Shown here: positions 3,274 through 63,366 of the stretch, piece by piece
Numbering within the stretch: position 1 is the stretch's first letter
Layout: each line of letters begins with the position of its first letter
Origin: a virus
Taxonomy: Duplodnaviria > Caudoviricetes
Direction: 5' to 3' (one strand)
IMG/VR virus record: IMGVR_UViG_3300014205_009256
Span: 14,330-78,329 of that record
DNA length: 64,000 bases
Position numbers and translations under genes: made by a program
The notes under the pieces: generated by a model
What the model saw: the letters and a program-made list of their open reading frames with translations, nothing else
The model's database searches: none
Told to the model about the DNA's origin: nothing

Positions 3274-3342
3274 ACTAAGTGGCCGGTTAGTTGTCAGGTA
3301 CTCGGATACGTTTCGATCACATGGATGGGCCGCCAGCCCCGA

Positions 3343-44180: not shown

Positions 44181-45543
44181 ACTTCGTCCCATCGATTCCA
44201 TTCGACCCTATCCCGGCAACCCGCGTGACAACGACGGCGCGGTGGATGCCGTGGCCAACTCGCTGAAAGAGTTTGGCTTTCGCCAACCGATTGTGGTCGA
44301 TGCCGACGGCGTCATCATCGTCGGGCACACCCGTTACAAGGCGGCGCTCAAACTCAATCTCAAACAGGTGCCGGTTCACGTCGCCACTGATCTCACGCCC
44401 GCACAGGTGAAGGCGTACCGTATCGCGGACAACGCAACGGGCGAGATCGCCAAGTGGAATTACGAACTGTTGCCGATTGAGTTGTCGGGTTTGTCGGAGA
44501 TGAACTTCGACCTCAACTTGCTCGGCTTCGACCCCGAGGAACTGGCACGCCTCACTTCCGGCGATGTGCAACAAGGCCTGACCGATCCCGACGATGTTCC
44601 GTTGCCGCCCGACGCGGCGACCACGCAACCGGGCGATCTTTGGATACTCGGCAACCATCGTCTGCTCTGCGGCGACAGTAGCAAGCCCGAAGACCTCGAC
44701 CGGTTGCTCGACGGCACGGACATTCATCTTGTGAACACCGATCCGCCCTATAACGTCAAGGTCGAACCGCGCTCCAACAACGCCATCGCCGCCGGTCTGT
44801 CCTCGTTCCAGGCGACCAACACGCAGCCCAACTTCCGGGACAACTTCCGGGGGCACCATCAGAGTTTCGACGTGGCGCGGCAGGGACCGAAGAAGGCGAC
44901 GGGCAAAAAGCTGCGAGCCAAGGACCGACCGCTGGCGAACGACTTTGTCAGCGACGCCGACTTCGACCAGATGCTCGACGACTGGTTCGGCAACATGGCG
45001 CGCGTGCTTCTGCCCGGCCACGGGTTCTACATCTGGGGCGGCTACGCGAATCTCGGCAATTACCCGCCGTACCTGAAGAAGCATGAACTGTATTTCAGCC
45101 AGGGCATCGTGTGGGATAAACAACACCCCGTGTTGACAAGGAAGGATTTCATGGGGGCGTTTGAGATTTGCTTCTACGGCTGGCGGGAAGGGGCTGCCCA
45201 TCGTTACTACGGCCCGAACAACGCGACGGACCTGTGGCATGTGAAGAAAATTCCTCCTCAGCAGATGGAACATTTGACGGCCAAGCCGGCGGAACTGGCG
45301 GTGCGTGCGATGCAGTATTCATCCCTGGCTGGCGAGAACGTCCTCGACCTGTTCGGCGGCAGCGGTTCCACGCTGATCGCGGCGGAACAGACCGGGCGCC
45401 ACGCCTACGTCATGGAATTGGACACGCTGTATTGCGATGTCATCGTCGACCGCTTTCAGCGATTCACCGGTCAAGCCGGCGTGCTGCAGCGCACCGGCGA
45501 TTCCCCCATTGCCATGAAGGCCCGCGAGGAGGCGATGCGATGA
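44170..45543 (+). CDS. ParB/Srx-like N-terminal domain fused to N6/N4 DNA methyltransferase
   Basis: FGFRQPIVVD...IVGHTRY...AYRIADN; TDPPYN; HLTAKP; LDLFGGSGST. Confidence 0.92.
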   Translation: MQIELRPIDSIRPYPGNPRDNDGAVDAVANSLKEFGFRQPIVVDADGVIIVGHTRYKAALKLNLKQVPVHVATDLTPAQVKAYRIADNATGEIAKWNYELLPIELSGLSEMNFDLNLLGFDPEELARLTSGDVQQGLTDPDDVPLPPDAATTQPGDLWILGNHRLLCGDSSKPEDLDRLLDGTDIHLVNTDPPYNVKVEPRSNNAIAAGLSSFQATNTQPNFRDNFRGHHQSFDVARQGPKKATGKKLRAKDRPLANDFVSDADFDQMLDDWFGNMARVLLPGHGFYIWGGYANLGNYPPYLKKHELYFSQGIVWDKQHPVLTRKDFMGAFEICFYGWREGAAHRYYGPNNATDLWHVKKIPPQQMEHLTAKPAELAVRAMQYSSLAGENVLDLFGGSGSTLIAAEQTGRHAYVMELDTLYCDVIVDRFQRFTGQAGVLQRTGDSPIAMKAREEAMR

Positions 45544-46031
45544 GGACCTATCCGACGCCCCGGGGGTCTATTTCACCATTCGGTTATCGCCGGATCACTT
45601 GCAAGGATCGCAAAAAGCGATTTGAGCATGTCATCGTGTGGGAACGGCACCACGGACCCGTGCCATCGGGCATGGAACTGCACCACATCAACGGCGACAA
45701 ACTCGACAACCGCATCGAAAATCTGATGTTGGTCAATCGCCTGGAACACAAGCGAATTGAAAGCGGGTGCTACCGAGTCGATGGGCGATGGTGGAAACGC
45801 TGCCGCCGGTGTCGCTGGTATCGCTCGGTCGACACGGAATTCTATACCTATCCCGGCAGCAATGGTGTCATGGGATTGTGCAAGCGGTGTGCCGTTGAAG
45901 TGGCGATGCAAAACAAACGACGCCGAACGCAACGACGCCAACGCCATCAGATCGAAACGGGTTCAATGCCGGCCCCGGAGAAAACCTCAACCCCCGCAAG
46001 GGTTGAGGTGGATATGGCAGGTGCAAAATGA
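45540..46031 (+). CDS. HNH endonuclease with C-terminal zinc finger
   Basis: FEHVIVWE...ELHHINGDKLDNRIENL; CRRC...CKRC; ATGA coupling to methylase. Confidence 0.85.
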   Translation: MRTYPTPRGSISPFGYRRITCKDRKKRFEHVIVWERHHGPVPSGMELHHINGDKLDNRIENLMLVNRLEHKRIESGCYRVDGRWWKRCRRCRWYRSVDTEFYTYPGSNGVMGLCKRCAVEVAMQNKRRRTQRRQRHQIETGSMPAPEKTSTPARVEVDMAGAK

Positions 46032-46033
46032 TG

Positions 46034-46381
46034 TCAGTACGGCAATTCAGCCAGGAAGCAAAATTCGATCATGGCGTCTTCAAACAGCGCCTTGGACGCG
46101 GGGTAACTGCGCCGGCCCCGCGTCACCACACAGGTTCGCTCCTTCATGAATTCCAGCGCCACGTTGACCTGTGTGAAAGGCGCGTCGATGGCCTGGACGA
46201 GCGGGTCGAGCGCCACGCCTTCGTCCGCATGTTCTTCAATGGCATGTGCGACGGCTTCGTAGATCGCCCGCGTGCAGCGGTGGCTGTACGAACGACCGGT
46301 GCTGGGGAACACGACCGTGCGGATCAGGTGGTCGTCTTTCACGTCGAAACTGACCTGTCGATCTCGTTGACGTGTAGGCAT
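46034..46381 (-). CDS. Hypothetical protein
   Basis: 115 aa in the counter-oriented small-gene cluster; RBS GGAG. Confidence 0.7.
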   Translation of the reverse strand: MPTRQRDRQVSFDVKDDHLIRTVVFPSTGRSYSHRCTRAIYEAVAHAIEEHADEGVALDPLVQAIDAPFTQVNVALEFMKERTCVVTRGRRSYPASKALFEDAMIEFCFLAELPY

Positions 46382-46390
46382 GATGATCTC

Positions 46391-46642
46391 CTATCTGGTC
46401 TGAACGATGCCGATGTTGAACTCACGACCGTCCTTCATGCGCACCACAACACCGAAGTCGCTGACTTCCGGGGGCACCCCCGGAAGTTTGCCTGTCTCGG
46501 CGAAGGTGCTCACGCAGTCGATGCCGGTTTGGTAGTCCAGCAGCGGGTACGGCACGGGTATCTGCTGATCGTCGGTGAAGTCGGCGATGGTGATCGCCGC
46601 CAGCAGGTCGTACAAAAGTTGTTGCATGTCTTGGGGTGTCAT
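46391..46642 (-). CDS. Hypothetical protein
   Basis: 83 aa, GVVVRMKDGREFNI; contains the inverted motif pair. Confidence 0.7.
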   Translation of the reverse strand: MTPQDMQQLLYDLLAAITIADFTDDQQIPVPYPLLDYQTGIDCVSTFAETGKLPGVPPEVSDFGVVVRMKDGREFNIGIVQTR

Positions 46643-46651
46643 GGCGAGACC

Positions 46652-47107
46652 TCACTTGGCATTGATGGTGAACAGGCCGCGATCCGTTTTGGTGAACCGG
46701 CTGCCCCCGGAAGGGCCCTTGGTCGTGATCTCGCGGAGGATCGCGCTGTAGAGCGTGGCGGCCGGCGTTTTGCCCTTGGTCTGCCACATGCCCTTGTCGA
46801 GCATGGTCTGGACGATGTCTTTGCAGTGCATGGGTTCGCCCTTGTCTTTGAGGACCTGGGCGGCGGCGTCGAGGCCGCTGACCTTTTTCACCTTGGGCGG
46901 CTTGGGTGTTTTGCTTCCGGGGGCCTTGGGCTGCTTGCTCGCCTTCATCGCCTGGTCGATCGGCACACGGTCGGCAGCGACGGCGTGGGCGTTGGCGGCG
47001 GCGTCCTTCGCACGCACCGCTTCGACTGCCGCCTTGGTGTCGACGGGCTTGGCCTTGGGCTTCTTGCTCGTGGCGGGTTTCTTCGTGGTGGTTTTCTTGG
47101 ACTTCAT
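46652..47107 (-). CDS. Lys-rich tail plus HARE-HTH-like winged helix protein
   Basis: SGLDAAAQVLKDKGEPMHCKDIV...KGKTPAATLYSAILREI...GLF; basic N-terminus. Confidence 0.8.
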   Translation of the reverse strand: MKSKKTTTKKPATSKKPKAKPVDTKAAVEAVRAKDAAANAHAVAADRVPIDQAMKASKQPKAPGSKTPKPPKVKKVSGLDAAAQVLKDKGEPMHCKDIVQTMLDKGMWQTKGKTPAATLYSAILREITTKGPSGGSRFTKTDRGLFTINAK

Positions 47108-47167
47108 GATGGAATCTCCTATGGCCGTGTTGGGGCTGGCCGGGCCCGTGGTTTCCGGGGGCGGGGG

Positions 47168-47449
47168 TTACAGGCCGACTTCGTCGGCCAGACGGTTGAA
47201 CTGTTCAGGCCCGCCGAGGGTCTGAATCAGCAGTTCGCTGAACCATTGAACCTGTCGCTGCACGTTGGCGTCGTTGACGTGGGCCGGCTGGAGGTACGCG
47301 ATGATCGTGGCGATGGCCTGCGGCGAGAGGTTGTCGCGCAGCGCGTCGGTCAGCAGGTCTTGCGGTTGGGGATCGTCGGGAACGCTGACGCGGACGGTGG
47401 TGCCGTCGGGTCGCGTGTGCGGGTACGTTTTGGTCTTCGACTTGGTCAT
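47168..47449 (-). CDS. Hypothetical protein
   Basis: 93 aa; AGGAGA RBS. Confidence 0.65.
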   Translation of the reverse strand: MTKSKTKTYPHTRPDGTTVRVSVPDDPQPQDLLTDALRDNLSPQAIATIIAYLQPAHVNDANVQRQVQWFSELLIQTLGGPEQFNRLADEVGL

Positions 47450-47479
47450 GACAATCTCCTGCGTATGTGGTTCGGGGGT

Positions 47480-47683
47480 TCAGACATGGTTGCGGCGGGC
47501 TTCAGTGCGCTTGATGCGCCGGTCCAGTTCGCTGGTGACCTGTCCCAATTCGCTTCGGGTCTGTTCGAGCTTGCGCGTCCAACGGCGCTGGCGGCAGGTC
47601 CAGACCTGGCTGACCAACTCGTCGCAGCGTCGGCACAGGTCATGGTCGTTGAGGTCTCGAAGGTTGGTGGTGTCTCTGGTCAT
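47480..47683 (-). CDS. Small coiled-coil hypothetical protein
   Basis: 67 aa; GGAG RBS. Confidence 0.5.
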   Translation of the reverse strand: MTRDTTNLRDLNDHDLCRRCDELVSQVWTCRQRRWTRKLEQTRSELGQVTSELDRRIKRTEARRNHV

Positions 47684-47707
47684 GGCGTGCTCCGGTGGTG
47701 GGTGGCT

Positions 47708-47977
47708 TCAGTCCTGAAAGCGTTGCATGTCCCGGAAGTAGTCGTGGACCATGCTGTTGGTGCCGTTACATCCGTCGGTGCGTTGCTGGACCTCGACGGC
47801 GACCTTGAACAAATCTTCGTCGCCGACGGCGGCGGGCAGTTCCCACGTTTTCCAGACCTGCTGGTGCCGGTCAGGGTTGCGCAAAACGCTGTCGATGCGG
47901 ATGGTGGGGCCGCCCGGCGCTTTCTCGATGGTGAGGTGGCCGGCGGCTCCTTCAAATTCGATTCGCGTGATCAACAT
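47708..47977 (-). CDS. Hypothetical protein
   Basis: MLITRIEFEG; AGGAGA RBS. Confidence 0.65.
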   Translation of the reverse strand: MLITRIEFEGAAGHLTIEKAPGGPTIRIDSVLRNPDRHQQVWKTWELPAAVGDEDLFKVAVEVQQRTDGCNGTNSMVHDYFRDMQRFQD

Positions 47978-48132
47978 GGTGGTCTCCTGCATGGGTGGGT
48001 TCGCGTTCTTACAGGACACATTCAGCCATCGGGGTGGCGGAACATCAAGGCCTAAATCCAGTAATTCCAGCTATTTAATATGTACGCGGACGGGCGGGCC
48101 GGTCATGCAAAACTCGGTCCAAACGCCGCAGA

Positions 48133-48327
48133 ATGGAGCCGAAAATCGACCCGAATTCTCTCACCCTTACGGACATGGCCAAGCTGCTGGCGGCGGCGGG
48201 CGGCAAACGCATCACCGTCGAGCAGGTCCAGGCGGATGTGGACGCCGGCGCGCCGGTCGGCGCTGACGGCCGCATGAACCTCGTGCATTACACCGCGTGG
48301 CTGCTTCAGAAAGTCCAAGGCCAATGA
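48133..48327 (+). CDS. Small HTH protein, terminase small subunit-like
   Basis: IDPNSLTLTDMAKLL...DGRMNLVHYTAWL; directly before terminase. Confidence 0.65.
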   Translation: MEPKIDPNSLTLTDMAKLLAAAGGKRITVEQVQADVDAGAPVGADGRMNLVHYTAWLLQKVQGQ

Positions 48328-50639
48328 CCCCCGGAAGTCACCAACTCGATCCCCGGAATCTGCGCGTGGCCGAAGCCGTGCGATTGCTCAACGCCACGCC
48401 GCTGGGCGAGGTGGTGCAACCGCATGTGGTCTATCGCCATCTGAACCGGGCGGCGTACAAGATCGGCGACGGCAAACGCATCGACCTGGTGCGCTATGCC
48501 GCATGGCTGTTCCATGCAAGACATGAACCTTCCGTGGGTGAACCCGGTTGGACCGAGAGTAATTACGAATCCCACAAAGATGCGGTCAACGCGCGCAGCC
48601 GCGCCAGTTCCGAATCGTCGCGCGACATCGCAAGTGAGGGCTGGGTCCATCCCCCGATGAACCCGGATCGCAAGGCAGTGTGCTGCTCCAGCTTCCGGGG
48701 GTTCTGCGAACAGTATTTTCCGCAGACCTTTCATCTGGCGTGGTCGCAGGACCATCTGAAGGTGATCGCCAAGATCGAGAATGCGGTTCTGGGCGGCGGG
48801 CTGTTTGCGATGGCGATGCCGCGCGGGTCGGGCAAAACGACGTTGTGCGAGACGGCGTGTCTGTGGGCGATGGTATATGGCCATCAGGAGTTCGTAGCGC
48901 TGATCGGGTCGGATGAAGATCACGCAGCGGACATGCTGGATGCGATCAAGAGTGAACTGGAGAACAACGATCTGCTGGAGGAGGATTTTAGTGAAGTGTG
49001 CGGGCCGATTCGCGCTTTGGAGGGGATTCATCAGCGGGCGGCCGGTCAGTTGTATCAAGGCGCGCGGACGCATGTGGGCTGGACGGCGAAGGAGATTATT
49101 CTGCCGACGGTGCCGGGCAGCCCCGGATCGGGTGCCATCATTCGTGTGGCAGGCATCACCGGTCGCATCCGTGGTATGAAGTTCAAGCGGCCCGACGGCA
49201 AGAGCGTGCGGCCGTCTCTGGTGTTGTTGGATGATCCGCAGACCGACGAATCGGCACGCAGCCCCAGTCAGTGCGCGACGCGCGAGCAGATTCTGGCCGG
49301 CGCGATCCTCGGCCTGGCCGGACCCGGGCACAAGATCGCGGGACTGATGACGCTGACGGTGGTGCGACCCGATGATATGGCCGACCGGATTCTGGACCGA
49401 GATAAGCATCCGCAGTGGCAGGGAGAGCGGACGAAGATGGTCTATGCCTTCCCCGCCCCCGGAAGTAAGGGCGAAAAACTCTGGCAGCAATATGCGCAAG
49501 TCCGCGCCGAGGGCCTGCGGAATGATCGCGGCGTCGAGGATGCGACGGAGTTCTATCGCAAACATCAGGACCAGATGGACGAGGGCGTCGAGGTCGCCTG
49601 GCCGGAACGTCACAACCCCGACGAGTTGAGCGCGATCCAGCACGCGATGAATCTCAAACTCGATCAGGGCGACGCGGCGTTCTGGGCTGAATATCAGAAC
49701 GAACCCCCGGAAGTGGATCAGGGCGATGATCTTCTCGATCCGGGGGCCATCGCGGGGAAAACCAACGGCATGAAACGCGCCGACGTGGCCGTTGGTGTGA
49801 ACCACGTCACCATGTTCATCGACGTGCAGGGGGCGCTGCTGTTCTGGATGGTGTGCGGTTGGGAGGACGATTTCACCGGCTACGTCCTGGACTACGGCGC
49901 GTATCCCGACCCCCGGAAGGCGTACTTCACGCTTCGGGAAACCAAACGCACTTTGATGACCGTCCATTCCGGGGGTGGCCAAGAGGCCGCGATCTATGCC
50001 GGGCTGGAAGCGCTGACCAACGACCGGCTCGGGAGAAAATTCCGCCGCGATGACGGTGCGGAGATGGCGATTGAGCGGTGTCTGATCGACGCGAACTGGG
50101 GTAACAGCACCGATGTGGTTTACCAGTTCTGCCGGCAGTCTTCGCACGCGGCCATCGTGATGCCCAGCCACGGGCGCTACGTCGGTGCTGCCAGCACACC
50201 GTTCGGTGATTACAAACCCAAACGCGGTGATCGTGTGGGATTGCATTGGCGTATTCCGAGCGTGCAAGGCCGCAGGAACGTGCGATATACGTTGATCGAC
50301 ACGAATTACTGGAAGAGTTTTGTGCAGACCCGCCTGGCGGTGTCGATGGGTGCCCCGGGTTGTTTGTCGCTATTCGCGCCGGACGTTGCGGCCGGGGGGC
50401 ACCAGCTTCTGTCCGAACATCTGACCGCCGAATACCGCGTGAAGACAAGTGGCCGGGGCCGGGAACTCGATGAATGGAAGCTCCGTCTTCCGGGGTCGGA
50501 CAACCACTGGCTCGACTGCCTGGTGGGTTGCGCGGTGGGTGCTTCCATGCAGGGCGCGGTGTTGTTCGGCACCGATGTGCGGCAGGAGCGGAACCGGCCT
50601 CGGATCAAATTGTCATCTCTTCAAGGAAAGCGCCGATGA
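48324..50639 (+). CDS. Terminase large subunit (lambda gpA-like) with N-terminal HTH extension
   Basis: MPRGSGKT Walker A, LVLLDDPQ Walker B, MFIDVQ nuclease, NHWLDCLVG. Confidence 0.9.
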   Translation: MTPGSHQLDPRNLRVAEAVRLLNATPLGEVVQPHVVYRHLNRAAYKIGDGKRIDLVRYAAWLFHARHEPSVGEPGWTESNYESHKDAVNARSRASSESSRDIASEGWVHPPMNPDRKAVCCSSFRGFCEQYFPQTFHLAWSQDHLKVIAKIENAVLGGGLFAMAMPRGSGKTTLCETACLWAMVYGHQEFVALIGSDEDHAADMLDAIKSELENNDLLEEDFSEVCGPIRALEGIHQRAAGQLYQGARTHVGWTAKEIILPTVPGSPGSGAIIRVAGITGRIRGMKFKRPDGKSVRPSLVLLDDPQTDESARSPSQCATREQILAGAILGLAGPGHKIAGLMTLTVVRPDDMADRILDRDKHPQWQGERTKMVYAFPAPGSKGEKLWQQYAQVRAEGLRNDRGVEDATEFYRKHQDQMDEGVEVAWPERHNPDELSAIQHAMNLKLDQGDAAFWAEYQNEPPEVDQGDDLLDPGAIAGKTNGMKRADVAVGVNHVTMFIDVQGALLFWMVCGWEDDFTGYVLDYGAYPDPRKAYFTLRETKRTLMTVHSGGGQEAAIYAGLEALTNDRLGRKFRRDDGAEMAIERCLIDANWGNSTDVVYQFCRQSSHAAIVMPSHGRYVGAASTPFGDYKPKRGDRVGLHWRIPSVQGRRNVRYTLIDTNYWKSFVQTRLAVSMGAPGCLSLFAPDVAAGGHQLLSEHLTAEYRVKTSGRGRELDEWKLRLPGSDNHWLDCLVGCAVGASMQGAVLFGTDVRQERNRPRIKLSSLQGKRR

Positions 50640-50842
50640 ACGAGACCTTCGACCTCATATCGCAACCGCCGCGTGGTCTGGAATGTCCCCGATGCGGATG
50701 CGGGCATTTTGAAGTGGTGAAGGTCTGCCAGGGACCGGGCTATGTGCGCCGCCGGCGTGAATGTCGTCACTGCGGTCGGCGCGTCACCACGACCGAACGC
50801 ATCGTCGGCGCGGGTGCCAACACTGTCCGGGGGCACCGGTAG
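50636..50842 (+). CDS. Zinc-ribbon protein (NrdR N-terminal-like)
   Basis: CPRCGC...VRRRRECRHCGRRVTT. Confidence 0.7.
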   Translation: MNETFDLISQPPRGLECPRCGCGHFEVVKVCQGPGYVRRRRECRHCGRRVTTTERIVGAGANTVRGHR

Positions 50843-51358: not shown

Positions 51359-51366
51359 GAGCCATC

Positions 51367-52887
51367 GTGTTCAGCATGCTGCGCAACATCTTCGGTTCAC
51401 GCACCACGGCAGCGCGCCCCGCGCTACGTCCGCCGGTGCGCGTACCGATCGTGCGCGGGCGCTACGACGCGGCGGCGACCACCGATGAGAATCGCAGGCA
51501 CTGGGCCAATGCCGATCTGCTGTCGCCCAACGCCGCCAATAGTGCATCGGTGCGGCGCGTTCTCCGATCCCGCGCCAGATACGAGGTGGCGAACAATTCC
51601 TATGCGCGCGGCATCGTGCTGACACTGGCGAACGACACCGTGGGCACCGGCCCGCGGCTTCAGTTGCTGACGGAAGATGAACAGGCCAACCGCTTTGTCG
51701 AACTGGCATTCGCCCAGTGGGCCGACGCGATCTGCCTGGCCGAAAAGCTCCGCACCATGCGCATCGGCCGCGCCGAATCCGGCGAATGCTTCGGCATGCT
51801 GGTGGCCAACCCCCGCATAAATTCACCGGTCCAACTCGACCTGCGCCTGATCGAAGCCGATCAAGTGGCTACGCCCCTGGCCATCGGTGCTGAACGGCGA
51901 ATGGTCAGCAATGTCGATGGCATCGTGCTCGACGCCTACGGCAACCCCATCGAATACCACGTCCTGTCCACCCATCCCGGTGACGGCATGGCGTTTGGTT
52001 CATCGCTCACCAAGGCCAACGTTCTGCACGTGCCCGCCGATGCGATGGTGCATTACTTCCGCGTGGATCGGCCCGGCCAGACACGGGGCATCCCGGAGAT
52101 TACCCCGGCGCTACCCCTGTTCGCTCAGTTGCGGCGCTACACGCTGGCGGTGATCGCGGCGGCGGAAACAGCCGCCGACTTCGCGGCGGTGCTCTACACC
52201 GACGCCCCCGCCAACGGCGAAGCCGATGCCGTCGAGCCGATGGACATCGTCGAACTGGAACGCCGCATGGCGACGGTACTTCCCGGTGGTTGGAAGCTGG
52301 GGCAGGTGACGGCGGAGCAGCCCGCCACCACCTACGCCGAGTTCAAACAGCAGATTCTCAACGAGATCGCGCGTTGCCTGAACATGCCGTTCAACATCGC
52401 GGCGGGCAATTCGTCGGGCTACAACTACGCATCGGGCCGTCTCGACCATCAGACCTATTACAAATCCATCCGCGTGGACCAGGCGCACATGGCGCGCATG
52501 GTCCTCGACCCGATCTTCCGCGCGTGGCTGAACGAAGCCGTGCTCATCGAAGGGTTCCTCCCCCAATCCATGCGCCGCACCGATTCGTTGCTCACCGTCC
52601 AGCGAAGGGGTTGGTTCTGGGATGGGGTCGAGCATGTGGACCCGGCGAAGGAAGCGAACGCCCAGGCGACGCGGCTGCAAAGCAACACCACCACGCTGGC
52701 GTATGAGTACGCGCGCCAGGGCCGCGACTGGGAAACCGAACTGCGTCAACGCGCCAAAGAAGTGGCGCTCATGAAGGAATTGGGATTACCGCTCTCGCAG
52801 GCGATGCCCGCCCCCACCATCGATCCGAATCAGGAGTCCGACAATGCCTCAGGCGATACAGCCACAGCAATGCGCCAAGCCGCTTGA
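51367..52887 (+). CDS. Portal protein, lambda family
   Basis: RSRARYEVANNSYARG, RPGQTRGIPE, GYNYASGR, HVDPAKEA. Confidence 0.93.
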   Translation: MFSMLRNIFGSRTTAARPALRPPVRVPIVRGRYDAAATTDENRRHWANADLLSPNAANSASVRRVLRSRARYEVANNSYARGIVLTLANDTVGTGPRLQLLTEDEQANRFVELAFAQWADAICLAEKLRTMRIGRAESGECFGMLVANPRINSPVQLDLRLIEADQVATPLAIGAERRMVSNVDGIVLDAYGNPIEYHVLSTHPGDGMAFGSSLTKANVLHVPADAMVHYFRVDRPGQTRGIPEITPALPLFAQLRRYTLAVIAAAETAADFAAVLYTDAPANGEADAVEPMDIVELERRMATVLPGGWKLGQVTAEQPATTYAEFKQQILNEIARCLNMPFNIAAGNSSGYNYASGRLDHQTYYKSIRVDQAHMARMVLDPIFRAWLNEAVLIEGFLPQSMRRTDSLLTVQRRGWFWDGVEHVDPAKEANAQATRLQSNTTTLAYEYARQGRDWETELRQRAKEVALMKELGLPLSQAMPAPTIDPNQESDNASGDTATAMRQAA

Positions 52888-55003: not shown

Positions 55004-55345
55004 ATGAGTACAGCAAACTTCGTTCAAGACGGCAACAGCATCGACTACACCCCTTCGGCAGATGTGTCCGGCGGCAGTGTGGTGGTCCAGGGTGACTTGA
55101 TCGGCGTGGTGAAGCGCGACATCGCCGCCAACACGCTGGGCGCGCTGGCAGTCACCGGCGTGTTCGATTTGCCCAAAGCCGCCGGCACCAGCACCGCCAT
55201 CGCCGCAGGCGTGAAAACGTACTGGGACGTGGCCGACCAGCAGGCCAAGGCCGACTCGGAAACCGGTGCCAACAAGTATCTCGGCAAGACCGTCCGCGCC
55301 GCCGCCGATGCCGACACCACCGCTCGCATTCGTTTGGAGCAATAA
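55004..55345 (+). CDS. DUF2190 family capsid-associated protein
   Basis: FVQDGNSIDYTP...GVFDLPKA. Confidence 0.88.
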   Translation: MSTANFVQDGNSIDYTPSADVSGGSVVVQGDLIGVVKRDIAANTLGALAVTGVFDLPKAAGTSTAIAAGVKTYWDVADQQAKADSETGANKYLGKTVRAAADADTTARIRLEQ

Positions 55346-55361
55346 CCCCCGGAAGCAAACC

Positions 55362-55730
55362 ATGCCCGACCTGCTGCGACAAGGTGCTGTATGGCTGGAA
55401 CAGATGCGCACGACGCACTGCACCAGTGTCGTCACGTACAGCGCGCCCAACAGCACGCCCGACACCTACTCGGTCAACGCGACCTACGGCAAGACCGAGT
55501 TCCAGATCGTGGATGAATCCGGCCTGACCGTCGGGGCCCATGTGTGGGATTTCCTCATTCTGGCGGCGGAACTGCCGGGCGTCGAACCGTCACCGGGCGA
55601 TGTGATCACGGCCGACGGCCGCAAGTTTGAAGTGCTGCCTTTGGGCGCAGACTTCCGGGGGTGGCGCTGGAGTGATCCGTACCGACAGACCTACCGCATT
55701 CACACCAAGGACATCGGCCCGTCGACATGA
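55362..55730 (+). CDS. Head-tail joining protein
   Basis: DFLILAA...PSPGDVI...YRIHTK; position. Confidence 0.7.
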   Translation: MPDLLRQGAVWLEQMRTTHCTSVVTYSAPNSTPDTYSVNATYGKTEFQIVDESGLTVGAHVWDFLILAAELPGVEPSPGDVITADGRKFEVLPLGADFRGWRWSDPYRQTYRIHTKDIGPST

Positions 55731-55751
55731 CGAGCGGCCAGGAGCAACACC

Positions 55752-56138
55752 ATGATTCGTCGCTGGCTTCATTCGGTGGACATCGCCTACGACCCGGCCA
55801 CGGGTTCGATTCTGACGGCCCCGGCGTCTGCGGGTGCGATCCACTGCGGCACCAAGATCGTCGCCGCCGCCGCGACGCCCGAAGCGTTGGTCAGTGAGTT
55901 GCCGCCCGGTGTGGATGCGGATCAGGCCGCTGTCTGCTCGGTCTGGATCGGCGCGCGGGTGGATGCCAACGGCAACGCGCAGAACACGATGCCCTGTTTC
56001 ATCGGCGACGCCGCCGTGCAGACCCTTCCGCTGCTGCCCAGCAACTACGAGGGATTCTTCCTCCGTATCGACCCCCGGAAGTTGTTCATCAAAGTCGGGG
56101 TCAACGGGCAGGGTGTGAACTACGCCATCTTCAGTTGA
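55752..56138 (+). CDS. Hypothetical protein
   Basis: 128 aa; AGGAG RBS. Confidence 0.65.
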   Translation: MIRRWLHSVDIAYDPATGSILTAPASAGAIHCGTKIVAAAATPEALVSELPPGVDADQAAVCSVWIGARVDANGNAQNTMPCFIGDAAVQTLPLLPSNYEGFFLRIDPRKLFIKVGVNGQGVNYAIFS

Positions 56139-56149
56139 GGAACGATCTC

Positions 56150-56446
56150 ATGCTGACCTCGGATCAAAAGATGCGAATGTTGCAAGTGCTGCTGAGCGAT
56201 CCGCCCGACGCGGCGGACCTGGCGGCGCTGCCGACGGCGCTGAGTAAACCTCTGAACGATCTGTTCCAGACGTTCGGCAAACTCCAACGCCAGGACAAGG
56301 CGGCGTTCGGTCGGCAGGTCCATCAGATCACCCACCAGCAACTTCAGCTGCGCCGACACCAGCAGATGCAGGCCAACGCTGGTAACTCGGCCTCGCCCAG
56401 CAAAGAAATACTTCCGGGGGCGGGGGAGGGGGTGACGCATGGCTGA
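56150..56446 (+). CDS. Hypothetical protein
   Basis: About 98 aa; overlaps next start. Confidence 0.55.
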   Translation: MLTSDQKMRMLQVLLSDPPDAADLAALPTALSKPLNDLFQTFGKLQRQDKAAFGRQVHQITHQQLQLRRHQQMQANAGNSASPSKEILPGAGEGVTHG

Positions 56447-57320
56447 AAAACTTTGGCTTGGAACCGTGGATGCCGCTTGGGACACGCCCGGCAATTGGTC
56501 GCCTGCGGGATTGCCGCAGGACGGCGACGCCGTGCGATTCGTCGGCGCGTCGCAGGGTATGGTGAGATTGTGCGCCACCGGCCCGGCGAATCCAGTGCAT
56601 CTGGTGTCGATTTTTGCTGAGGCCGGATACAACGGCATCAGCACGCAATACTGGACGTTGGCCGATTACGCGATCTGCTGCTTCGACCGCATCACCGTCG
56701 ATCAGATGGAACTGGCCGGCCATATGCAAAGCACCCAGGGAACCCTTTCCGGGGGCGGAAGTAGTGGCGGAAGCGGGGGTGGTACTTCCGGGGGTGTCAT
56801 TCTCAGCGGCGACTACTGCAAACCCTACATGTTGACGGTGGCCGGCGATCTGATTGTGCGGGGGCAATACAACGGCACGTTCATGGATTGGTCCCTCGAT
56901 CCCTACTGCGGCGTGTGGGTGCAGGGGCGATTGCTCGTCGAAGGCAACAGCGCCGAGATTAACGGCTATCGCTTCGACGGTGAAGTGATCGTCACTGGTA
57001 GCAACGCTGGGTTCTGGGGCGGTAATGGGCCGGATTGGACCGATTGCCGGTTCAACTCGGCGATCCACCTGTTCGGACCCGGCGCGTTTCTGGGGATCAA
57101 CGGTATGACCAGTCACGGCGGCAATATCTATGTCTATCGCCCCGAATCGTTCGGTTTCGATTTCTGGGGCTGGCGGGGTTTCGACGCGAACTGCGGCGTG
57201 AAGATCATGCGGCGAACGCATCAGCCGCTCTACTGGAACATGCCCATCTATCTGGATCAGGCCTACGGCGGCCCCGCCCCCGGCCCCGCCCCCGGCATGG
57301 CCGGAATGGGAAGTATGTGA
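56439..57320 (+). CDS. Trp/Gly-rich beta-rich hypothetical protein, adhesin-like N-terminus
   Basis: WLGTVDAAWDTPGNWSPAGLP; Gly/Ser linker. Confidence 0.6.
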   Translation: MAEKLWLGTVDAAWDTPGNWSPAGLPQDGDAVRFVGASQGMVRLCATGPANPVHLVSIFAEAGYNGISTQYWTLADYAICCFDRITVDQMELAGHMQSTQGTLSGGGSSGGSGGGTSGGVILSGDYCKPYMLTVAGDLIVRGQYNGTFMDWSLDPYCGVWVQGRLLVEGNSAEINGYRFDGEVIVTGSNAGFWGGNGPDWTDCRFNSAIHLFGPGAFLGINGMTSHGGNIYVYRPESFGFDFWGWRGFDANCGVKIMRRTHQPLYWNMPIYLDQAYGGPAPGPAPGMAGMGSM

Positions 57321-57745
57321 TGAGCCGAATCGTGGATATCGCGGACGCGGTGGTGACGGCGTTGAACGCCGGGCCGTTCGACCCGGCGCTCCAGGCGGTG
57401 CGGTCGTACCAGCCGGGTTACGAACTGGAACAGTTGAAGGAACTGCGCATCACGGTGGTGCCGCGCGGGATGGAACAGACCGGTGCGACGCGTGCCATGA
57501 CCCAGCGGGATGTGCAGATCGACATCGGCATCCAGAAGAAACTGGCCCAGACCAACGCGGCCGAAGTGGATGCGTTGCTCGACCTGGTGCAGCAGATGGC
57601 GGATCACATTCGCACGGTGCGCCAGTTCGGCCCGGCGATCTGGGTGAAGACGGAAAACACACCGATCTATTCGGTCGAACACATGGAACAACTGCGGGTC
57701 TTTACCAGCGTCCTGACGCTGACCTTGCGGATGGTGACGACATGA
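57320..57745 (+). CDS. Tail terminator-like protein
   Basis: MSRIVDIADAVV...IDIGIQKKL; position. Confidence 0.65.
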   Translation: MSRIVDIADAVVTALNAGPFDPALQAVRSYQPGYELEQLKELRITVVPRGMEQTGATRAMTQRDVQIDIGIQKKLAQTNAAEVDALLDLVQQMADHIRTVRQFGPAIWVKTENTPIYSVEHMEQLRVFTSVLTLTLRMVTT

Positions 57746-58167
57746 TCGGTTTCGACATCAAGCAACTGTTCTTCGACAAACCGGCGGTGATCAACGCTGT
57801 CGATCGCGCCACGCGGAAAGTGCTGAGCAAATTCGGCGCGTTCGTGCGAACCACCGCGCGACACTCGATCCGCAAGAGAAAACAACCCGCGCCGCCCGGC
57901 AAACCGCCGTCGAGTCACACAGGCCTGCTGAAGAAGTTCATCTACTTCGGCTATGACCCGTCAAAACGTAGCGTGGTGATCGGGCCTGTGCGTTTGAGCG
58001 AACGCGGGCGGGGCGAACTTCCGGGGGCGCCGCCGCTGTTGGAATACGGCGGCACCCGGAAGGTGGGAAAGAAAGTGGCGTTTTACAAAGCCAGACCTTT
58101 CATGGGCCCGGCGTTCGAGAACGAAAAACCCCAACTGCCCGCGATGTGGGCGAGCAGCGTGAAATAG
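57742..58167 (+). CDS. Tail completion protein (HK97 gp10-like)
   Basis: SKFGAFVR...PGKPPSSHTG...ARPFMGPA. Confidence 0.7.
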   Translation: MIGFDIKQLFFDKPAVINAVDRATRKVLSKFGAFVRTTARHSIRKRKQPAPPGKPPSSHTGLLKKFIYFGYDPSKRSVVIGPVRLSERGRGELPGAPPLLEYGGTRKVGKKVAFYKARPFMGPAFENEKPQLPAMWASSVK

Positions 58168-58178
58168 GAGCAACAACC

Positions 58179-58622
58179 ATGTCTCAAGAATTCCTGCTCG
58201 GCATGAACGCCAAAATCTACCAGGGCCCTTCCGGGGGTGCGTTGGCCACACTCACCGAGATGGCCAACGTCAGGGACGTGACACTCACGCTCAACGCCGG
58301 TGAAGCCGATGTCACCACGCGCGCCAACCAGGGCTGGCGCGCCACCGCGCCGACATTGCGCGAATGCACCGCCGAGTTCGAGATGCTCTGGAAGCCCGGC
58401 GATGCCGGGTTCGACGCCATCAAAACGGCCTACCTCTCCAGCGACACGGTGCGTTTGGCCGTACTTACCGGTGCGCAGGACGCCGCCGGAACGGAGGGGC
58501 CGGTGGGGGATTTCTCCATCACCAACTTCAGTCGCAGCGAGCCGCTGGAGGAAGGTGTCACCGTTTCCGTCACCGCCAAACTCGCCGTCTTCGACCAGTG
58601 GCTGAAAGTCACCGCCCCCTAA
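58179..58622 (+). CDS. Major tail tube protein
   Basis: NVRDVTLTL..GEADVTTR...GDFSITNFSRSEPLEEG. Confidence 0.8.
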   Translation: MSQEFLLGMNAKIYQGPSGGALATLTEMANVRDVTLTLNAGEADVTTRANQGWRATAPTLRECTAEFEMLWKPGDAGFDAIKTAYLSSDTVRLAVLTGAQDAAGTEGPVGDFSITNFSRSEPLEEGVTVSVTAKLAVFDQWLKVTAP

Positions 58623-58696
58623 CCCCCCCCGGAAGTAAGCCCGCCCCCGGCCCCCGGAAGTAGTAACGATTCCGTATCTACATATAGGAGCGCCTC

Positions 58697-59176
58697 GTGA
58701 AAACCTTCACTGACGCCGCCAGCCGTACCTGGACCCTCACGCTCAATCTCGGCACCGCGATGGCGGTCAAAGACAAACTGCACATCGACCTGCTCCAGCC
58801 CGAGCAGGGCGACCCCCCGCTGCTCACACGCCTCGGCACCGACGAGATGTTGCTGGGCGAAGTGTTGCTCGCCTTGCTCGAAAAACAGTTCGAGATTCAC
58901 AAAGTCACCGCCGACGATGTCCGCGCCGCGTTCGACGGGCGCACGCTGCTGGCGGCGCAGACCGCGTTCTATGAGGAACTCGTCGATTTTTTCCAGTCAC
59001 GCGGTCGCAGCGACAGGGCGAAAGCGGCCGCGAAGCAGAAGCAGATGATCGACGCCGCCGTCGCCGCCATCGAGACGAAGATCGAAGCGATCAACGTGGA
59101 CCAGACGATTGCTGGCGCGATGTCTGGCGCATCGCAGGATGTCTCTGTCTCAGCCCCGATGGGCTCCGCCGTTTAA
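58697..59176 (+). CDS. Tail assembly chaperone (gpG-like)
   Basis: Between tube and tape measure; contains T TTT TTC at 58987-58993. Confidence 0.75.
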   Translation: MKTFTDAASRTWTLTLNLGTAMAVKDKLHIDLLQPEQGDPPLLTRLGTDEMLLGEVLLALLEKQFEIHKVTADDVRAAFDGRTLLAAQTAFYEELVDFFQSRGRSDRAKAAAKQKQMIDAAVAAIETKIEAINVDQTIAGAMSGASQDVSVSAPMGSAV

Positions 59177-59403
59177 CCCTTCGGCAATTGTTGTGGATGG
59201 CCGAGGGTTACGGGCAGGATCGCTGGGCGCATACGTCGTTGCTGTGTGCCCTGATCGCCAACGGCAACCGCGACCCCCGGAAGGGGCGACCGTTTAAGCC
59301 GGAGGATTTCAACCCCTATATGAGCAAGCCCCAGCGCGATGACGTGGTGATCGTGGATCAGAACAACATCGATCTGTTGCGAAAAGCATTCACTGGAAGG
59401 TAA
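58987..59403 (+). CDS. -1 frame extension of the chaperone (gpT-like)
   Basis: -1 frame open 58975-59403 encoding DVWRIAGCLCLSPDGLRRLTLRQLLWMAEG...PEDFNPY, with no clear own start. Confidence 0.65.
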   Translation, partial: FFPVTRSQRQGESGREAEADDRRRRRRHRDEDRSDQRGPDDCWRDVWRIAGCLCLSPDGLRRLTLRQLLWMAEGYGQDRWAHTSLLCALIANGNRDPRKGRPFKPEDFNPYMSKPQRDDVVIVDQNNIDLLRKAFTGR

Positions 59404-59441
59404 CCCCCGCCCCCGGAAGGTAACCCCGGAAAGTAAACACC

Positions 59442-59636
59442 ATGCTGAAAAACATCCTCATCATTGTTTTGGTCGTCTTCCTCGTAGTTGGCTGTCTGGA
59501 TCAGGGACGTGCGGGCCATGACGATTGGCTGCCGATGTTCGGGCCGGATGTGCCCGTGCTTTCCCCGCACGTGATGCCGGATGCGGCCGCTGATCGTCTC
59601 GATGTCTATCGGTTCCAGACCGCCAGGGAGAGCTAA
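59442..59636 (+). CDS. Small putative lipoprotein
   Basis: MLKNILIIVLVVFLVVGC signal peptide with lipobox-like VVGC. Confidence 0.55.
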   Translation: MLKNILIIVLVVFLVVGCLDQGRAGHDDWLPMFGPDVPVLSPHVMPDAAADRLDVYRFQTARES

Positions 59637-59638
59637 AC

Positions 59639-61615
59639 ATGCCGTCCGCACAGGGCATCCGAGCAGGCCGCGCCTTCGTCGAGCTGTTCGCTGACGACAG
59701 CAAGCTCGTGCGCGGCCTGCGCGCCGCTGAGAAGAAGCTCAAGGCCTTCGGTGCGGGCATCCGCAATCTGGGCTTGAAGATGATGGCGGTGGGTGCGGCG
59801 GTCGTCGCGCCCCTGGCGGCGGCAGGAAAATACTTCAGCGACTACGGCGACGGCATCGCCAAGATGGCCAAGCGGACGGGCTTGAGCGTGGAGGCGCTGA
59901 GCGAACTGGACTTCGCCGCCGGTCAGTCGGGCGCGTCGCTGGCATCGGTGGAAAAGGGCGTCCGTAAAATGCAAAAGACCCTCGTCGATGCGGTTGCCGG
60001 ATCGAAAGAGGCGGTGGATTCCCTGGCGCTCCTGGGTCTGACCGTTCAGGATTTGGCGGACCTGTCCCCTGAACAACAGTTCAAACTGCTGGCCGATCGC
60101 ATCAGCAAGGTCGAAGACCCGACTCGAAGAGCCGCCATCGCCATGTCGATCTTCGGCAAGTCGGGAACCGAGTTGATTCCCCTCATGGCCCAAGGCGCGG
60201 CCGGCATCGAGGAACTGCAGGCGCAGGCGCGACGCCTGGGCCTGACGATGAGCGGTGAAGATGCGGCGGCGGCGGAAGAACTGAATGATGCACTGGACCA
60301 ACTCTGGCGTGTGGTCAAGATGACCGCCTTCCAGATCGGCGCGGCGCTCGCACCGGCTTTGAAGCAGGTGGCGCAAACCATCACACGCGTGGTGGTCAGC
60401 GTCAATGCGTGGCTCAAACAGAACCGGCAGATCGTGGTCACTGTGGCGAAAGTGGCGCTGGCGGTGGTTGCCGCCGGCGCGGCGCTGGTCGTACTGGGCA
60501 CGATTATCAGCGGCCTGGGTTCGGTCATCAGCGCTTTGATCACCATCATTACTTCCGGGGGCGCGGTGTTCAGCGCTGTCGGTTCCGTGATCGCCTTCCT
60601 CGTCACCCCCATCGGTGCTGTGATCGGGGCGCTGACGGCGCTGGGGGCTTACCTGGTCTGGGCCAGCGGCGCAGGTGGGAAGGCGCTGGCGTGGTTGGGG
60701 GATCGTTTTGCCCAACTGAAAGACGACGCCCTCAAGTCATACCAGGGCATCGGCGATGCGTTGGCGGCGGGCGACATTGCTCTGGCGGCGAAGGTGCTCT
60801 GGCTGACACTCAAGCTCGAATGGACGCGCGGGGTGAATTTCGTCGAGGGATTGTGGTTGAGCTTCCGGGGGTTTCTGATGGACGTGCTGGTCGGCGCGTT
60901 CACCGGCGCGCTGGCCGCGTTGGAGATCGTCTGGCATGGATTGGAAGTGGCGTGGATCGAGACCACCGCCTTTCTCGCCACCGCATGGCAGGGCTTCGTC
61001 AACATCTTCATGCACAGTTGGGAACGGATGAAAGCACTGGCGACCAAGGTCTGGAACTGGATCAAGGGATTGTTCGACAGTTCCCTCGATGTCCAAGCGG
61101 TCAATGCCCAGGTCGATAAGGCGTTGGAACAGCGTCTGGCCGAGATCGACCAGAACACGGCCAACGCCGCCACGGGCATCGAACTGCGCCGGCAGACCCG
61201 CCGTGAGGATGCCGCCGCCATCAATGAGCAAACCTTGGGCGTGATCGGCGACAAATACAACGCCGAACAGGAGCGGCAGGCGAAAGAGCGGGCGCAGTCG
61301 GACAAGGACGCGGAGGAGGCGCTAATCAAAGCCCGTCAGGAATGGGAAGCGGCCATCGCCGAGGCGAAGCAGAAACGTGCGTCCGCTGAATCCAATGTAC
61401 CCGGTATGCCGACTCTGCCACAGCTCCCCGACATTAGTGACATGTTGGACAAGGCGGCGAAGATCAGTGTGACCGGCACGTTCAACGCGTCGGCGCTGTT
61501 CGGATTGGGCACAGGCAACGCGGCGGATCGCACGGCCAAGGCGACGGAAGAGACGGCGAAGAACACGAAGACCCTCATCAACAAGCTCGATTACGGCGGA
61601 TCGGCGTTTGCCTAG
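59639..61615 (+). CDS. Tail tape measure protein
   Basis: 658 aa, Ala-rich helical, IRAGRAFVEL start, hydrophobic middle; follows chaperones. Confidence 0.9.
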   Translation: MPSAQGIRAGRAFVELFADDSKLVRGLRAAEKKLKAFGAGIRNLGLKMMAVGAAVVAPLAAAGKYFSDYGDGIAKMAKRTGLSVEALSELDFAAGQSGASLASVEKGVRKMQKTLVDAVAGSKEAVDSLALLGLTVQDLADLSPEQQFKLLADRISKVEDPTRRAAIAMSIFGKSGTELIPLMAQGAAGIEELQAQARRLGLTMSGEDAAAAEELNDALDQLWRVVKMTAFQIGAALAPALKQVAQTITRVVVSVNAWLKQNRQIVVTVAKVALAVVAAGAALVVLGTIISGLGSVISALITIITSGGAVFSAVGSVIAFLVTPIGAVIGALTALGAYLVWASGAGGKALAWLGDRFAQLKDDALKSYQGIGDALAAGDIALAAKVLWLTLKLEWTRGVNFVEGLWLSFRGFLMDVLVGAFTGALAALEIVWHGLEVAWIETTAFLATAWQGFVNIFMHSWERMKALATKVWNWIKGLFDSSLDVQAVNAQVDKALEQRLAEIDQNTANAATGIELRRQTRREDAAAINEQTLGVIGDKYNAEQERQAKERAQSDKDAEEALIKARQEWEAAIAEAKQKRASAESNVPGMPTLPQLPDISDMLDKAAKISVTGTFNASALFGLGTGNAADRTAKATEETAKNTKTLINKLDYGGSAFA

Positions 61616-61639
61616 CCCCCGGCCCCCCGGAAGTAAGAC

Positions 61640-62467
61640 ATGGCATTGACCTGCACGGAAAATCCCGACTCGCGCAAATACACCGACGGCCAGTCGGCGG
61701 AGTTGTCCTACACGGTGCGCGGCACCGCCGACGAAGCAGCCGCCATCGCCAAATTGAGCGAGACCGCCCCCGGAAGTTTTAACGGGCTGGTAAGACAACC
61801 CGGCACCGTCGAACCGGTGTTCGTCGATGAGGCCAATCCCGACCGCTGTATCTGGACGGGAACGGTTCAATACAGCCCGTATCCGTTCGAGGTATTCCCG
61901 CAGACGGGTGATTCGTCGTTCAGCTTCGATACCTCCGGCGGATCGCAGCACATCACGCAATCCCTGGCGAACGTTCACAAGTATGCGGCGGCTGGTCAGA
62001 CCGCGCCCGACTTCAAAGGGGCCATCGGTGTCACCAAGGATAGCGTCGAGGGCGTGGACATCACCGTGCCGGTCTACACCTTCAACGAGACGCATTACCT
62101 GGCCGACGATGTCGTCACCGATGCGTACAAGGGCATTCTGTTCAATCTCACGGGGAAAACCAACGCCGCCGCATTCCGTGGCCTCGCGGCGGGCGAGTGT
62201 CTGTTCCTGGGTGCGTCGGGTTCCAAACGTAAATCGGCTGGTGGGGTCGATTGGGAGATCAACTTTCGTTTCGCCGGCAGTCCCAACAAAACCAATCTCA
62301 CCATCGGCCCCATCACCGGCATTGCGAAGAAAGGATGGGAGTACCTGTGGGTGCGCTACGCCGACGTGGAAGACACCGCCAGTAAGAATCTGGTCAAACA
62401 ACCGATCGCCGCCTACATCGAACAGGTGTATGAGGAAGGCGATTACACCGGACTGGGGATTGATTGA
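61640..62467 (+). CDS. Tail protein (post-tape-measure)
   Basis: 275 aa, FSFDTSGG...GECLFLGASG...GWEYLWVRY. Confidence 0.7.
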   Translation: MALTCTENPDSRKYTDGQSAELSYTVRGTADEAAAIAKLSETAPGSFNGLVRQPGTVEPVFVDEANPDRCIWTGTVQYSPYPFEVFPQTGDSSFSFDTSGGSQHITQSLANVHKYAAAGQTAPDFKGAIGVTKDSVEGVDITVPVYTFNETHYLADDVVTDAYKGILFNLTGKTNAAAFRGLAAGECLFLGASGSKRKSAGGVDWEINFRFAGSPNKTNLTIGPITGIAKKGWEYLWVRYADVEDTASKNLVKQPIAAYIEQVYEEGDYTGLGID

Positions 62468-63366
62468 TGAACGGCGACCCCTTTCATAAGGTGCAGACCG
62501 GCGACAAGCTGATCATTCCCGCGCAGGCGTACAACGCATTCATCGATGCGGCGAAAGCGGTGCGCGGGATAGGCGCTGTTGGCGCTGGCGGCCTGGGCGA
62601 AGTCGGATCGCAGCCCGGTCTCATCAAGATCAAAAACACGTCGGGTGTGGCTGTCCCTCAATTCGGCATCCTCGGCATCGACGACATTCTGTTTTCTCCG
62701 ACCGACAACCTGCTCGGATTCAAGCGTCAGCCCGTTCTCAAAGGCGTCACCCCCGGAAGTGGAGGTAGCGGTGTCAACCACCGGGGGAAATTCGTCGTCA
62801 TGCTCGAACCGGTGGACGTGAATGCCATCGGGCTGGCCTGCGTCAGCGGCGTCACCATCGTCAAGGTGGACGTGACACGCGAATCATACAATTACGCCGA
62901 TATTCGTCCCAACAACACGTCTTACCTCCGCGCCGCCCATGTCAGATCGGCCCGAATCATCTGGAAGGAAGCGGGCACCGGTTACAAATGGGCGCTGGTG
63001 TGTTTGCAATCCCCCGCGCCGTACGGCTTCGCCAAGATCACGGCCATGAAAACGTCTTCCGGGGGCGACTGGACGGATTACCCGACCAACAGCGAATATC
63101 CCTTGTACGTCGAAGCCAACCCCTGCTCTGATCTGGCTGGCGGCGACACCGACACCACCATCACGCTGAAACTGGGCATCAACCCTTCCTACCAAACCGG
63201 CTACGCCGCAACCGCGCCCACCGGCATGATTACCCAGGTCGGCGCTGTGGTGGGCTACCTGTCCTTCACCTGCTACAAGCTCGCTTCGCCGACCCCCTAC
63301 ACCTTCGACGGCTGGATCGTTCCCTACATGGGTGGCTGCTGGCCCGACTGGGTGAGGGCGCATTGA
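62464..63366 (+). CDS. Tail-associated protein
   Basis: 300 aa; coupled to upstream gene. Confidence 0.65.
   Translation: MMNGDPFHKVQTGDKLIIPAQAYNAFIDAAKAVRGIGAVGAGGLGEVGSQPGLIKIKNTSGVAVPQFGILGIDDILFSPTDNLLGFKRQPVLKGVTPGSGGSGVNHRGKFVVMLEPVDVNAIGLACVSGVTIVKVDVTRESYNYADIRPNNTSYLRAAHVRSARIIWKEAGTGYKWALVCLQSPAPYGFAKITAMKTSSGGDWTDYPTNSEYPLYVEANPCSDLAGGDTDTTITLKLGINPSYQTGYAATAPTGMITQVGAVVGYLSFTCYKLASPTPYTFDGWIVPYMGGCWPDWVRAH

Follow-up and report, generated by a model that had tools for sequence, protein, structure and literature searches.

We analysed a 64,000-nt stretch (hereafter the window) of a 78-kb virus contig, IMG/VR record IMGVR_UViG_3300014205_009256, in which a prophage late region is crowded with copies of the asymmetric 10-mer CCCCCGGAAG, which can also be written as TTCCGGGGG. 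This word acts at the DNA level irrespective of its orientation, occurs host-wide in part of the lineage and is densest in the late module of one prophage family. Its copies turn over rapidly by short patches and local duplication, and its abundance is independent of phage DNA-binding genes. Our preferred interpretation, to which we would give a probability of roughly 45%, is that CCCCCGGAAG is not a device of this prophage but a lineage-restricted iterated word of Phycisphaerales and some mobile elements, kept by a short-patch drive that favours copy number. New here are a census across the host family and its order, the lack of polarity, the finding that prophages are richer in the word than their hosts and late regions richer than early ones, the failed co-occurrence with candidate partner genes, and the patch-like turnover.

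The window contains 28 exact copies, 15 forward and 13 reverse, spanning 44844-63065, and every site listed in a preliminary description of this DNA was recovered at its coordinates. Dinucleotide shuffles gave a mean expectation of 0.25 copies with a maximum of 2, and the enrichment also holds after Markov correction, models of order 1-4 predicting 0.06-0.35 copies in the right-hand 20 kb. Window positions 1-44800 are free of exact copies, as are the 14.3 kb that precede the window in the record, leaving the 59 kb of the record outside the word-rich zone without any. The word reaches 1.4 copies/kb in the late module, where one gap of 4.1 kb between exact copies includes the portal gene. Aligned flanks extend the consensus to R-CCCCCGGAAG-T, with A or G at -1 in 26 of 28 copies and T at +1 in 17. 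Copies with one mismatch number 13 in the right 20 kb (0.65/kb) and 7 in the left 58 kb (0.12/kb, background level), and perfect copies outnumber them by about 2:1. The near matches reported earlier overlap only partly with ours, since some of them carry two mismatches.

Coding does not explain the word, because the genic copies use all six phases (read as PGS, PPE, PRK, LPG, FRG and SGG) and impose rare codons, which bears out the earlier proposal of a feature beyond protein coding. Genic copies number 23, with 10 in sense and 13 in antisense, and the remaining five are intergenic. The codons that they force are disfavoured in the same genes outside the copies, where GGA and GGG make up 9% and 15% of Gly codons, CTT 5% of Leu and CGG 19% of Arg. 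An assembly artefact, which the preliminary description had named as a possible undoing of the pattern, is excluded by the enrichment of this word across many independent assemblies. An Rfam search of 43-64 kb returned no matches, and full-text literature searches for CCCCCGGAAG and for iterated words in Planctomycetes yielded nothing relevant.

The word is widespread in host chromosomes. Relatives of the large terminase (TerL) of the window, at 65-81% identity, come from hundreds of metagenome-assembled genomes (MAGs) and viral contigs of Phycisphaerae and other Planctomycetota. Among 160 such loci the word was strongly shared only by L092 (15 copies in 22 kb), while several close relatives had 2-4 copies and L001, L008 and L011 none. 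The 5.6-Mb MAG that carries L092 (G001) holds 396 copies of the word, whereas the reversed control gives 14, and on its largest contig the copies lie within genes for GH9, GH42, sulfatase, acetyl-CoA synthetase and the like. A housekeeping-type oxidoreductase gene of the same MAG has four tandem 12-base units that encode APGS repeats. Reversed-word controls in host genomes gave about 2-25 copies, and across the 144 genomes of the host family counts of the word run continuously from this control level to 1182, with about 80 genomes having at least 50 copies. In enriched genomes, forward and reverse counts are about equal. In a 401-genome sample of the order the spread was patchy and enrichment beyond the host family rare; the richest genome, G194, lies outside that family with 1445 copies in 3.4 Mb (0.43/kb). 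One genome of this sample, G229, is unpublished and not enriched, and no claim is based on it. The phage specificity first suggested for the word is thus contradicted by host genomes of the same family, which carry copies genome-wide in metabolic genes. The preliminary description had also stated that a similar density across the host chromosome would speak for a host repeat; hosts do have the word, but at a density 3-300 times below that of this module.

These chromosomal copies show no direction. On the closed 4.1-Mb chromosome of G008, forward and reverse copies are intermixed over the full length and replichore polarity is absent; apparent runs of forward copies in a multi-genome listing arose from forward hits being listed first and are contradicted by the full G008 list. 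A polar chromosome signal of the Chi or KOPS (FtsK-orienting polar sequence) kind would suit the G-rich reverse strand and the host density of one copy per 3-50 kb, which is within the range of such signals. The intermixed orientations in G008 exclude such a signal there, and with the 15:13 split in the phage and the many hosts that have no copies at all, we consider this explanation scarcely credible.

A 356-kb sample of the word-rich genome G064 contained 113 sites, 23% of them in the roughly 9% of the DNA that is intergenic. Of 31 pairs within 60 bases, 30 were direct and 17 had spacings that are multiples of three; direct pairs with a uniform spacer in each array indicate local duplication. 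The same sample (L181-L200) has other repeats, namely GGGTGCCACACAG (about 22 in 356 kb, sometimes beside the word), CTAACT arrays and GGTACGGGGTAC. In 400 kb sampled from G136, a genome without the word, no alternative iterated word appeared. The idea that related loci might use "dialects" of the word was dropped, as the odd 10-mers found there form local iteron or operator clusters and are not scattered words. In related prophages, about 4-6 kb upstream of TerL, tight clusters comprise 5-7 copies of the prophage's own 10-mer in both orientations, e.g. CACAAAACGA or CACCACACAG, and have the appearance of operator, origin or pac arrays specific to each lineage:
L086, 5216-5586, cluster of its own 10-mer
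L082, 6717-6850, cluster of its own 10-mer
L039, 6235-6423, cluster of its own 10-mer
L003, 6243-6381, cluster of its own 10-mer
L145, 3760-4037, cluster of its own 10-mer

Comparison of related sequences revealed how copies come and go. The 7.4-Mb chromosome G148:C1 has at least 11 paralogous prophages of the family (L243, L245, L253 and L269-L276) that are 78-94% identical. The 11 late regions compared hold 4-19 copies per 20 kb, and two of them, L243 with 19 copies and L245 with 6, share 94% identity across 11 kb. With L253 used to polarise the changes, one gain in L243 is an 18-base stuttered insert in place of 9 bases and a second consists of three clustered transitions, while L253 itself has an insertion and a tandem duplication, each of 12 bases. 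Between paralogue pairs, word sites were conserved at 0.16 in blocks of 80-85% identity (random 10-mers 0.24), at 0.31 in blocks of 85-90% (random 10-mers 0.31) and at 0.53 in blocks of 90-95% (random 10-mers 0.68). Presence/absence differences involved at least three changed positions in 74% of cases against 24% for control 10-mers, and gaps occurred in 24 of 47. New copies appear as short multi-base patches, either clustered substitutions or mostly in-frame insertions of 9-18 bases, and by local direct duplication. A codon alignment of TerL places copies at variable loops, as a three-residue substitution (QKR to PRK) or in 4-codon insertions; two of the five TerL sites of the window are common to L092, and the other three are lineage-specific gains. 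As individual copies are not conserved, it is their number that is maintained and not their position. At L243:2603 and 2935, compared with L245 and L271, some paralogues have the forward word and others a CTTCCG-like sequence that resembles its core reversed in place, which suggests template-switch events around the CCGG centre.

The same observations could be read as a non-functional mutational by-product, in which slippage or template switching around a C5/CCGG core, or templated patch insertion, creates copies that gather mostly in the tolerant, fast-evolving structural genes of phages. Patch-like gains, stutters, alleles apparently inverted in place, site conservation at or below the neutral level and the location of sites in variable loops and insertions are all compatible with this. 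Local slippage, however, cannot seed unlinked perfect 10-12-mers at 30-300 times expectation, the absence of the word from co-resident elements and close relatives needs extra assumptions, and we know of no enzyme that would create words in such a way. We therefore regard a pure by-product as unlikely.

The word-rich region of the window represents the late section of a tailed prophage, with packaging, head and tail genes. Its main genes, and the early replication gene to its left, are:
40756-43239, forward strand, Prim-Pol replication gene of the early module, with no copies of the word
44170-45543, forward strand, ParB-N/N6_N4 DNA methylase gene (Pfam and PHROG matches; true start near 44170)
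46034-46381, reverse strand, small gene
46391-46642, reverse strand, small gene
46652-47107, reverse strand, small gene for a HARE-HTH protein with a Lys-rich, histone-H1-like N-terminal tail (PF05066, E = 5e-14)
47168-47449, reverse strand, small gene
47480-47683, reverse strand, small gene
47708-47992, reverse strand, small gene
48297-50639, forward strand, TerL of the gpA type (Pfam and PHROG searches)
51367-52887, forward strand, lambda-type portal gene
52844-54925, forward strand, head protease-major capsid fusion
59639-61615, forward strand, tape-measure gene

The methylase gene opens the module common to related prophages and the word-rich zone begins inside it; its product is 78% identical to that of the G001 prophage, starting from Met57 of a longer open reading frame (ORF). 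The HARE-HTH gene adjoins the methylase gene in this prophage family. The six small genes at 46034-47992 were recognised by codon-position GC pattern and translation, share one frame and are set apart by single stop codons and short spacers. Both lines of evidence favour them over a 675-aa forward ORF at 46028-48055, which we rejected as a spurious high-GC artefact, and the four word copies in the 46-48 kb stretch are therefore read on the reverse strand. The Prim-Pol of the window is unrelated to that of the G001 prophage. The exact copies are placed as follows:
44844-44853, reverse, methylase gene, antisense (FRG)
46465-46474, reverse, gene 46391-46642, sense (PPE), forming an inverted pair with the copy at 46477
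46477-46486, forward, gene 46391-46642, antisense (LPG)
46704-46713, forward, HARE-HTH gene, antisense (SGG)
46914-46923, reverse, HARE-HTH gene, sense (PGS)
48328-48337, forward, TerL (PGS)
48692-48701, reverse, TerL, antisense (FRG), common to L092 and L084
49456-49465, forward, TerL (PGS), within a 4-codon insertion relative to most relatives
49704-49713, forward, TerL (PPE)
49910-49919, forward, TerL (PRK), in place of a conserved QKR, common to L092
54015-54024, reverse, capsid gene, antisense (SGG)
55346-55355, forward, intergenic, immediately following the stop at 55345, with 6 nt left to the ATG at 55362
55652-55661, reverse, gene 55362-55730, antisense (FRG)
56072-56081, forward, gene 55752-56138 (PRK)
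56411-56420, reverse, gene 56135-56446, antisense (LPG)
56785-56794, reverse, gene 56439-57320, antisense (SGG)
58018-58027, reverse, gene 57742-58167, antisense (LPG)
58228-58237, reverse, gene 58146-58622, antisense (SGG)
58626-58660, forward, two intergenic copies (58626 and 58651) with partial reiterations between them, just past the stop at 58622
59274-59283, forward, gene 59188-59403 (PRK)
59395-59437, forward, intergenic stutter of a partial copy, the exact copy at 59410 and a one-off copy 8 nt before the ATG at 59442
60552 (SGG) and 60862 (FRG), reverse, tape-measure gene, antisense
61624-61633, forward, intergenic, 6 nt before the ATG at 61640
61767-61776, forward, gene 61640-62467 (PGS)
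62750-62759, forward, gene 62464-63366 (PGS)
63056-63065, reverse, gene 62464-63366, antisense (SGG)

Gene junctions, both in the window (58626-58660 and 59395-59437) and in the G148 prophages, often follow the order stop codon, word in either orientation, 4-10 nt, ATG. Whichever way the word points, GGAAG or GGGGG then forms a purine-rich stretch 4-10 nt ahead of the start codon, and this layout suggests a possible secondary use of junction copies as a purine-rich ribosome-binding spacer. These junctions serve as examples only, the gene caller based on GC at third codon positions being weak on the lower-GC G148 prophages.

The late module of this prophage family carries the word at 0.1-1.5 copies/kb, 10-100 times the level of its own host. 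Twenty late regions adjoining methylase homologues were sampled from host-family genomes, and 17 of them had 0.1-1.0 copies/kb, again 10-100 times the host average, also in hosts at control level such as G036 (0.32 copies/kb in the prophage late region, 0.004 in the host), G060 (0.91 and 0.008) and G109 (0.65 and 0.008). In the window the word zone starts exactly where homology to the G001 prophage starts. A chimeric assembly behind this sharp left boundary was rejected: the order Prim-Pol, methylase, HARE-HTH and TerL recurs in independent contigs, and the junction at 43-45 kb is thus natural. Window positions 1-3600 share 76-80% DNA identity with multi-copy elements in G063, G040, G001, G036 (two copies) and G148 (two copies), and with matches in so many host-family genomes the word-free left part must be mobile DNA of the same host group too. 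Dense spots are also found outside this module. A compact cassette in G008 (L225:9559-17082, that is G008:C1:1049559-1057082) consists of a serine integrase, an unknown gene, a different TerL and a ParB-methylase; it has 8 copies in 6.7 kb, while the rest of G008 is word-poor, and the next 15 kb showed no head genes. The dense spots of G006 lie in host genes (UvrC-like, VWA/YfbK and SRAP).

Such concentration in one module invites the explanation of a phage-encoded binding-site array, in which the HARE-HTH protein with its H1-like tail or the ParB-methylase coats, silences or marks the late operon. In this prophage family both genes stand at the start of the word-rich module, the late module exceeds early regions 5-6-fold in copies, and an asymmetric 10-mer would be within reach of a winged helix that binds as a monomer. 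The partnership with either gene proposed in the preliminary description fails, however, on co-occurrence, as neither gene tracks word abundance. Not a single copy occurs in L001, L008 and L011, although all three encode the methylase (79-81% identity) and a HARE-HTH protein. Methylase homologues occur in 43 of the 144 host-family genomes, many word-poor ones included, and were not found in seven of the eight word-richest; HARE-HTH was found in only one of the five richest and in one of five word-free genomes. With neither gene found in most of the richest hosts searched, with mixed orientation inside a one-directional operon and with sites that are not positionally conserved, an array of this kind appears very unlikely. 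A gene-transfer agent derived from this phage family was likewise rejected as the source of host-wide copies, since its TerL was not found in the five richest host-family genomes; TerL, too, fails to follow the abundance of the word in hosts.

Positions that are not conserved, at a density 30-300 times above chance, mean that some directional force must favour gains. The likeliest such force, in our view, is a short-patch drive that raises copy number by biased conversion, or by preferential transfer or survival of word-bearing DNA in the manner of uptake sequences. Its effect would peak wherever related DNAs most often come together and recombine, such as the late module common to the phage family, and with homologous partners so plentiful the late module would be expected to exceed both the heterogeneous early modules and the host chromosome.

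Several points weigh against this interpretation. Prophages carry 0.1-0.9 copies/kb even where the host is at control level, and the module of the window, at 1.4/kb, is more than three times denser than the richest host genome. In 13 prophages there were 82 copies in the 20 kb from the methylase onward and 13 in the 20 kb upstream, a 5-6-fold difference; mosaic history alone is insufficient to explain the left boundary in the window, as these 13 other prophages show the same bias, and the late-module excess is therefore a property of the phage family and not only of this contig's history. The excess could instead reflect a phage-linked function. Neighbouring mobile elements of the same record lack copies, the paralogue pairs of G148 are not independent of each other, and patch-like differences may be due in part to sites lying in hypervariable loops. 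Finally, no recognising factor emerged among the candidates tested, and the drive is something that we infer.

A different kind of selection would act if the word were a recognition tag for a host DNA-handling machine, either uptake-like or a "self" mark by which DNA escapes a nuclease, read as double-stranded DNA either way; elements that often enter new cells would then be the most strongly selected for many copies. The 10-100-fold richer prophages would fit, as would a genome-wide, orientation-independent word whose count is maintained rather than its position, and the 2:1 ratio of perfect to one-mismatch copies. ComEC was present in four of the five richest genomes searched, though it is near-universal in bacteria and hence uninformative. 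Against such a tag stand the early module and the neighbouring mobile elements, which have no copies, and the hosts at control level, which would have no usable tag and yet harbour prophages with the word. Moreover, close pairs are direct stutters, unlike the inverted terminator pairs typical of the DNA uptake sequence (DUS) and the uptake signal sequence (USS), and a literature search found no report of competence and no receptor for the group. We thus consider a selected tag doubtful.

Taken more broadly, the word may mark an undescribed sequence-biased DNA process in Phycisphaerae, either short-patch biased conversion or an uptake or transfer signal, that temperate phages exploit, or by which they are driven, more than their hosts; we offer this as a possible, if somewhat improbable, outcome. 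An uptake or transfer signal of this kind would, to our knowledge, be the first outside Proteobacteria.

Few short words are known to iterate across whole bacterial genomes, with DUS, USS and HIP1 as the main examples. These are the closest known cases, and although CCCCCGGAAG fits none of them, it resembles uptake sequences more than a phage control system. Like DUS and USS, it is an asymmetric word of 9-12 bases, found in a single lineage, whose copies number in the hundreds to thousands (here 50-1445 per genome) and occur in both orientations, lying in genes in all frames at tolerant positions, enriched in intergenic DNA and with perfect and one-mismatch copies at about 2:1. It differs from them in a lower host density (0.43/kb at most), in close pairs that are direct stutters (30 of 31) instead of inverted terminators, in prophages enriched 10-100-fold where those of DUS/USS systems are depleted relative to the core genome, and in an abundance that is patchy inside a single family, in a group for which neither competence nor a receptor is known; in DUS/USS systems a specific receptor lets competent cells favour DNA that bears the word. 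HIP1 (GCGATCGC) of cyanobacteria is likewise a short genome-wide word, found in coding DNA and very uneven among relatives. No settled mechanism exists for HIP1, although repair or methylation may take part. It is a palindrome of eight bases, unlike the word described here, which is an asymmetric decamer with tandem stutters, and the phage ParB-methylase, the sole methylase compared, does not co-vary with it. Among the options raised initially, a HIP1-like motif was the nearest in kind, but the asymmetry of the word does not agree with it.

Phage and chromosome signals are more distant. The stoperators of Cluster A mycobacteriophages are also dozens of asymmetric sites of 10-13 bases distributed through phage genes and intergenic DNA, but they are phage-specific, bound by a repressor and oriented with transcription, while the present word is host-wide, mixed (10 sense, 13 antisense) and independent of phage DNA-binding genes, so that the distinction from stoperators drawn at the outset is upheld by both orientation and host-wide presence. 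Chi and the KOPS/SRS (SpoIIIE recognition sequence) octamers are over-represented words tolerated in genes, with a G-rich strand, yet they are strongly skewed with replication, a skew that this word lacks in G008. ParB-parS systems differ in that parS is palindromic and clustered near a parB-family gene, whereas this word is asymmetric, extends over 18 kb and shows no co-variation with the ParB-methylase.

DUS, USS and HIP1 each brought to light a DNA-level force, be it uptake bias or repair, by which the evolution of genomes and the flow of genes are shaped. A third kind of iterated word, in uncultured Planctomycetota, would be notable for its in-frame insertions into protein loops and its peak in a prophage late module. 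For annotators it is a caution that a motif dense in a phage need not be a phage device, and in metagenomes the word would be of practical use for matching phages with their hosts. For the biology of these bacteria, it would offer a way into DNA transfer or repair, neither of which is understood in this phylum.

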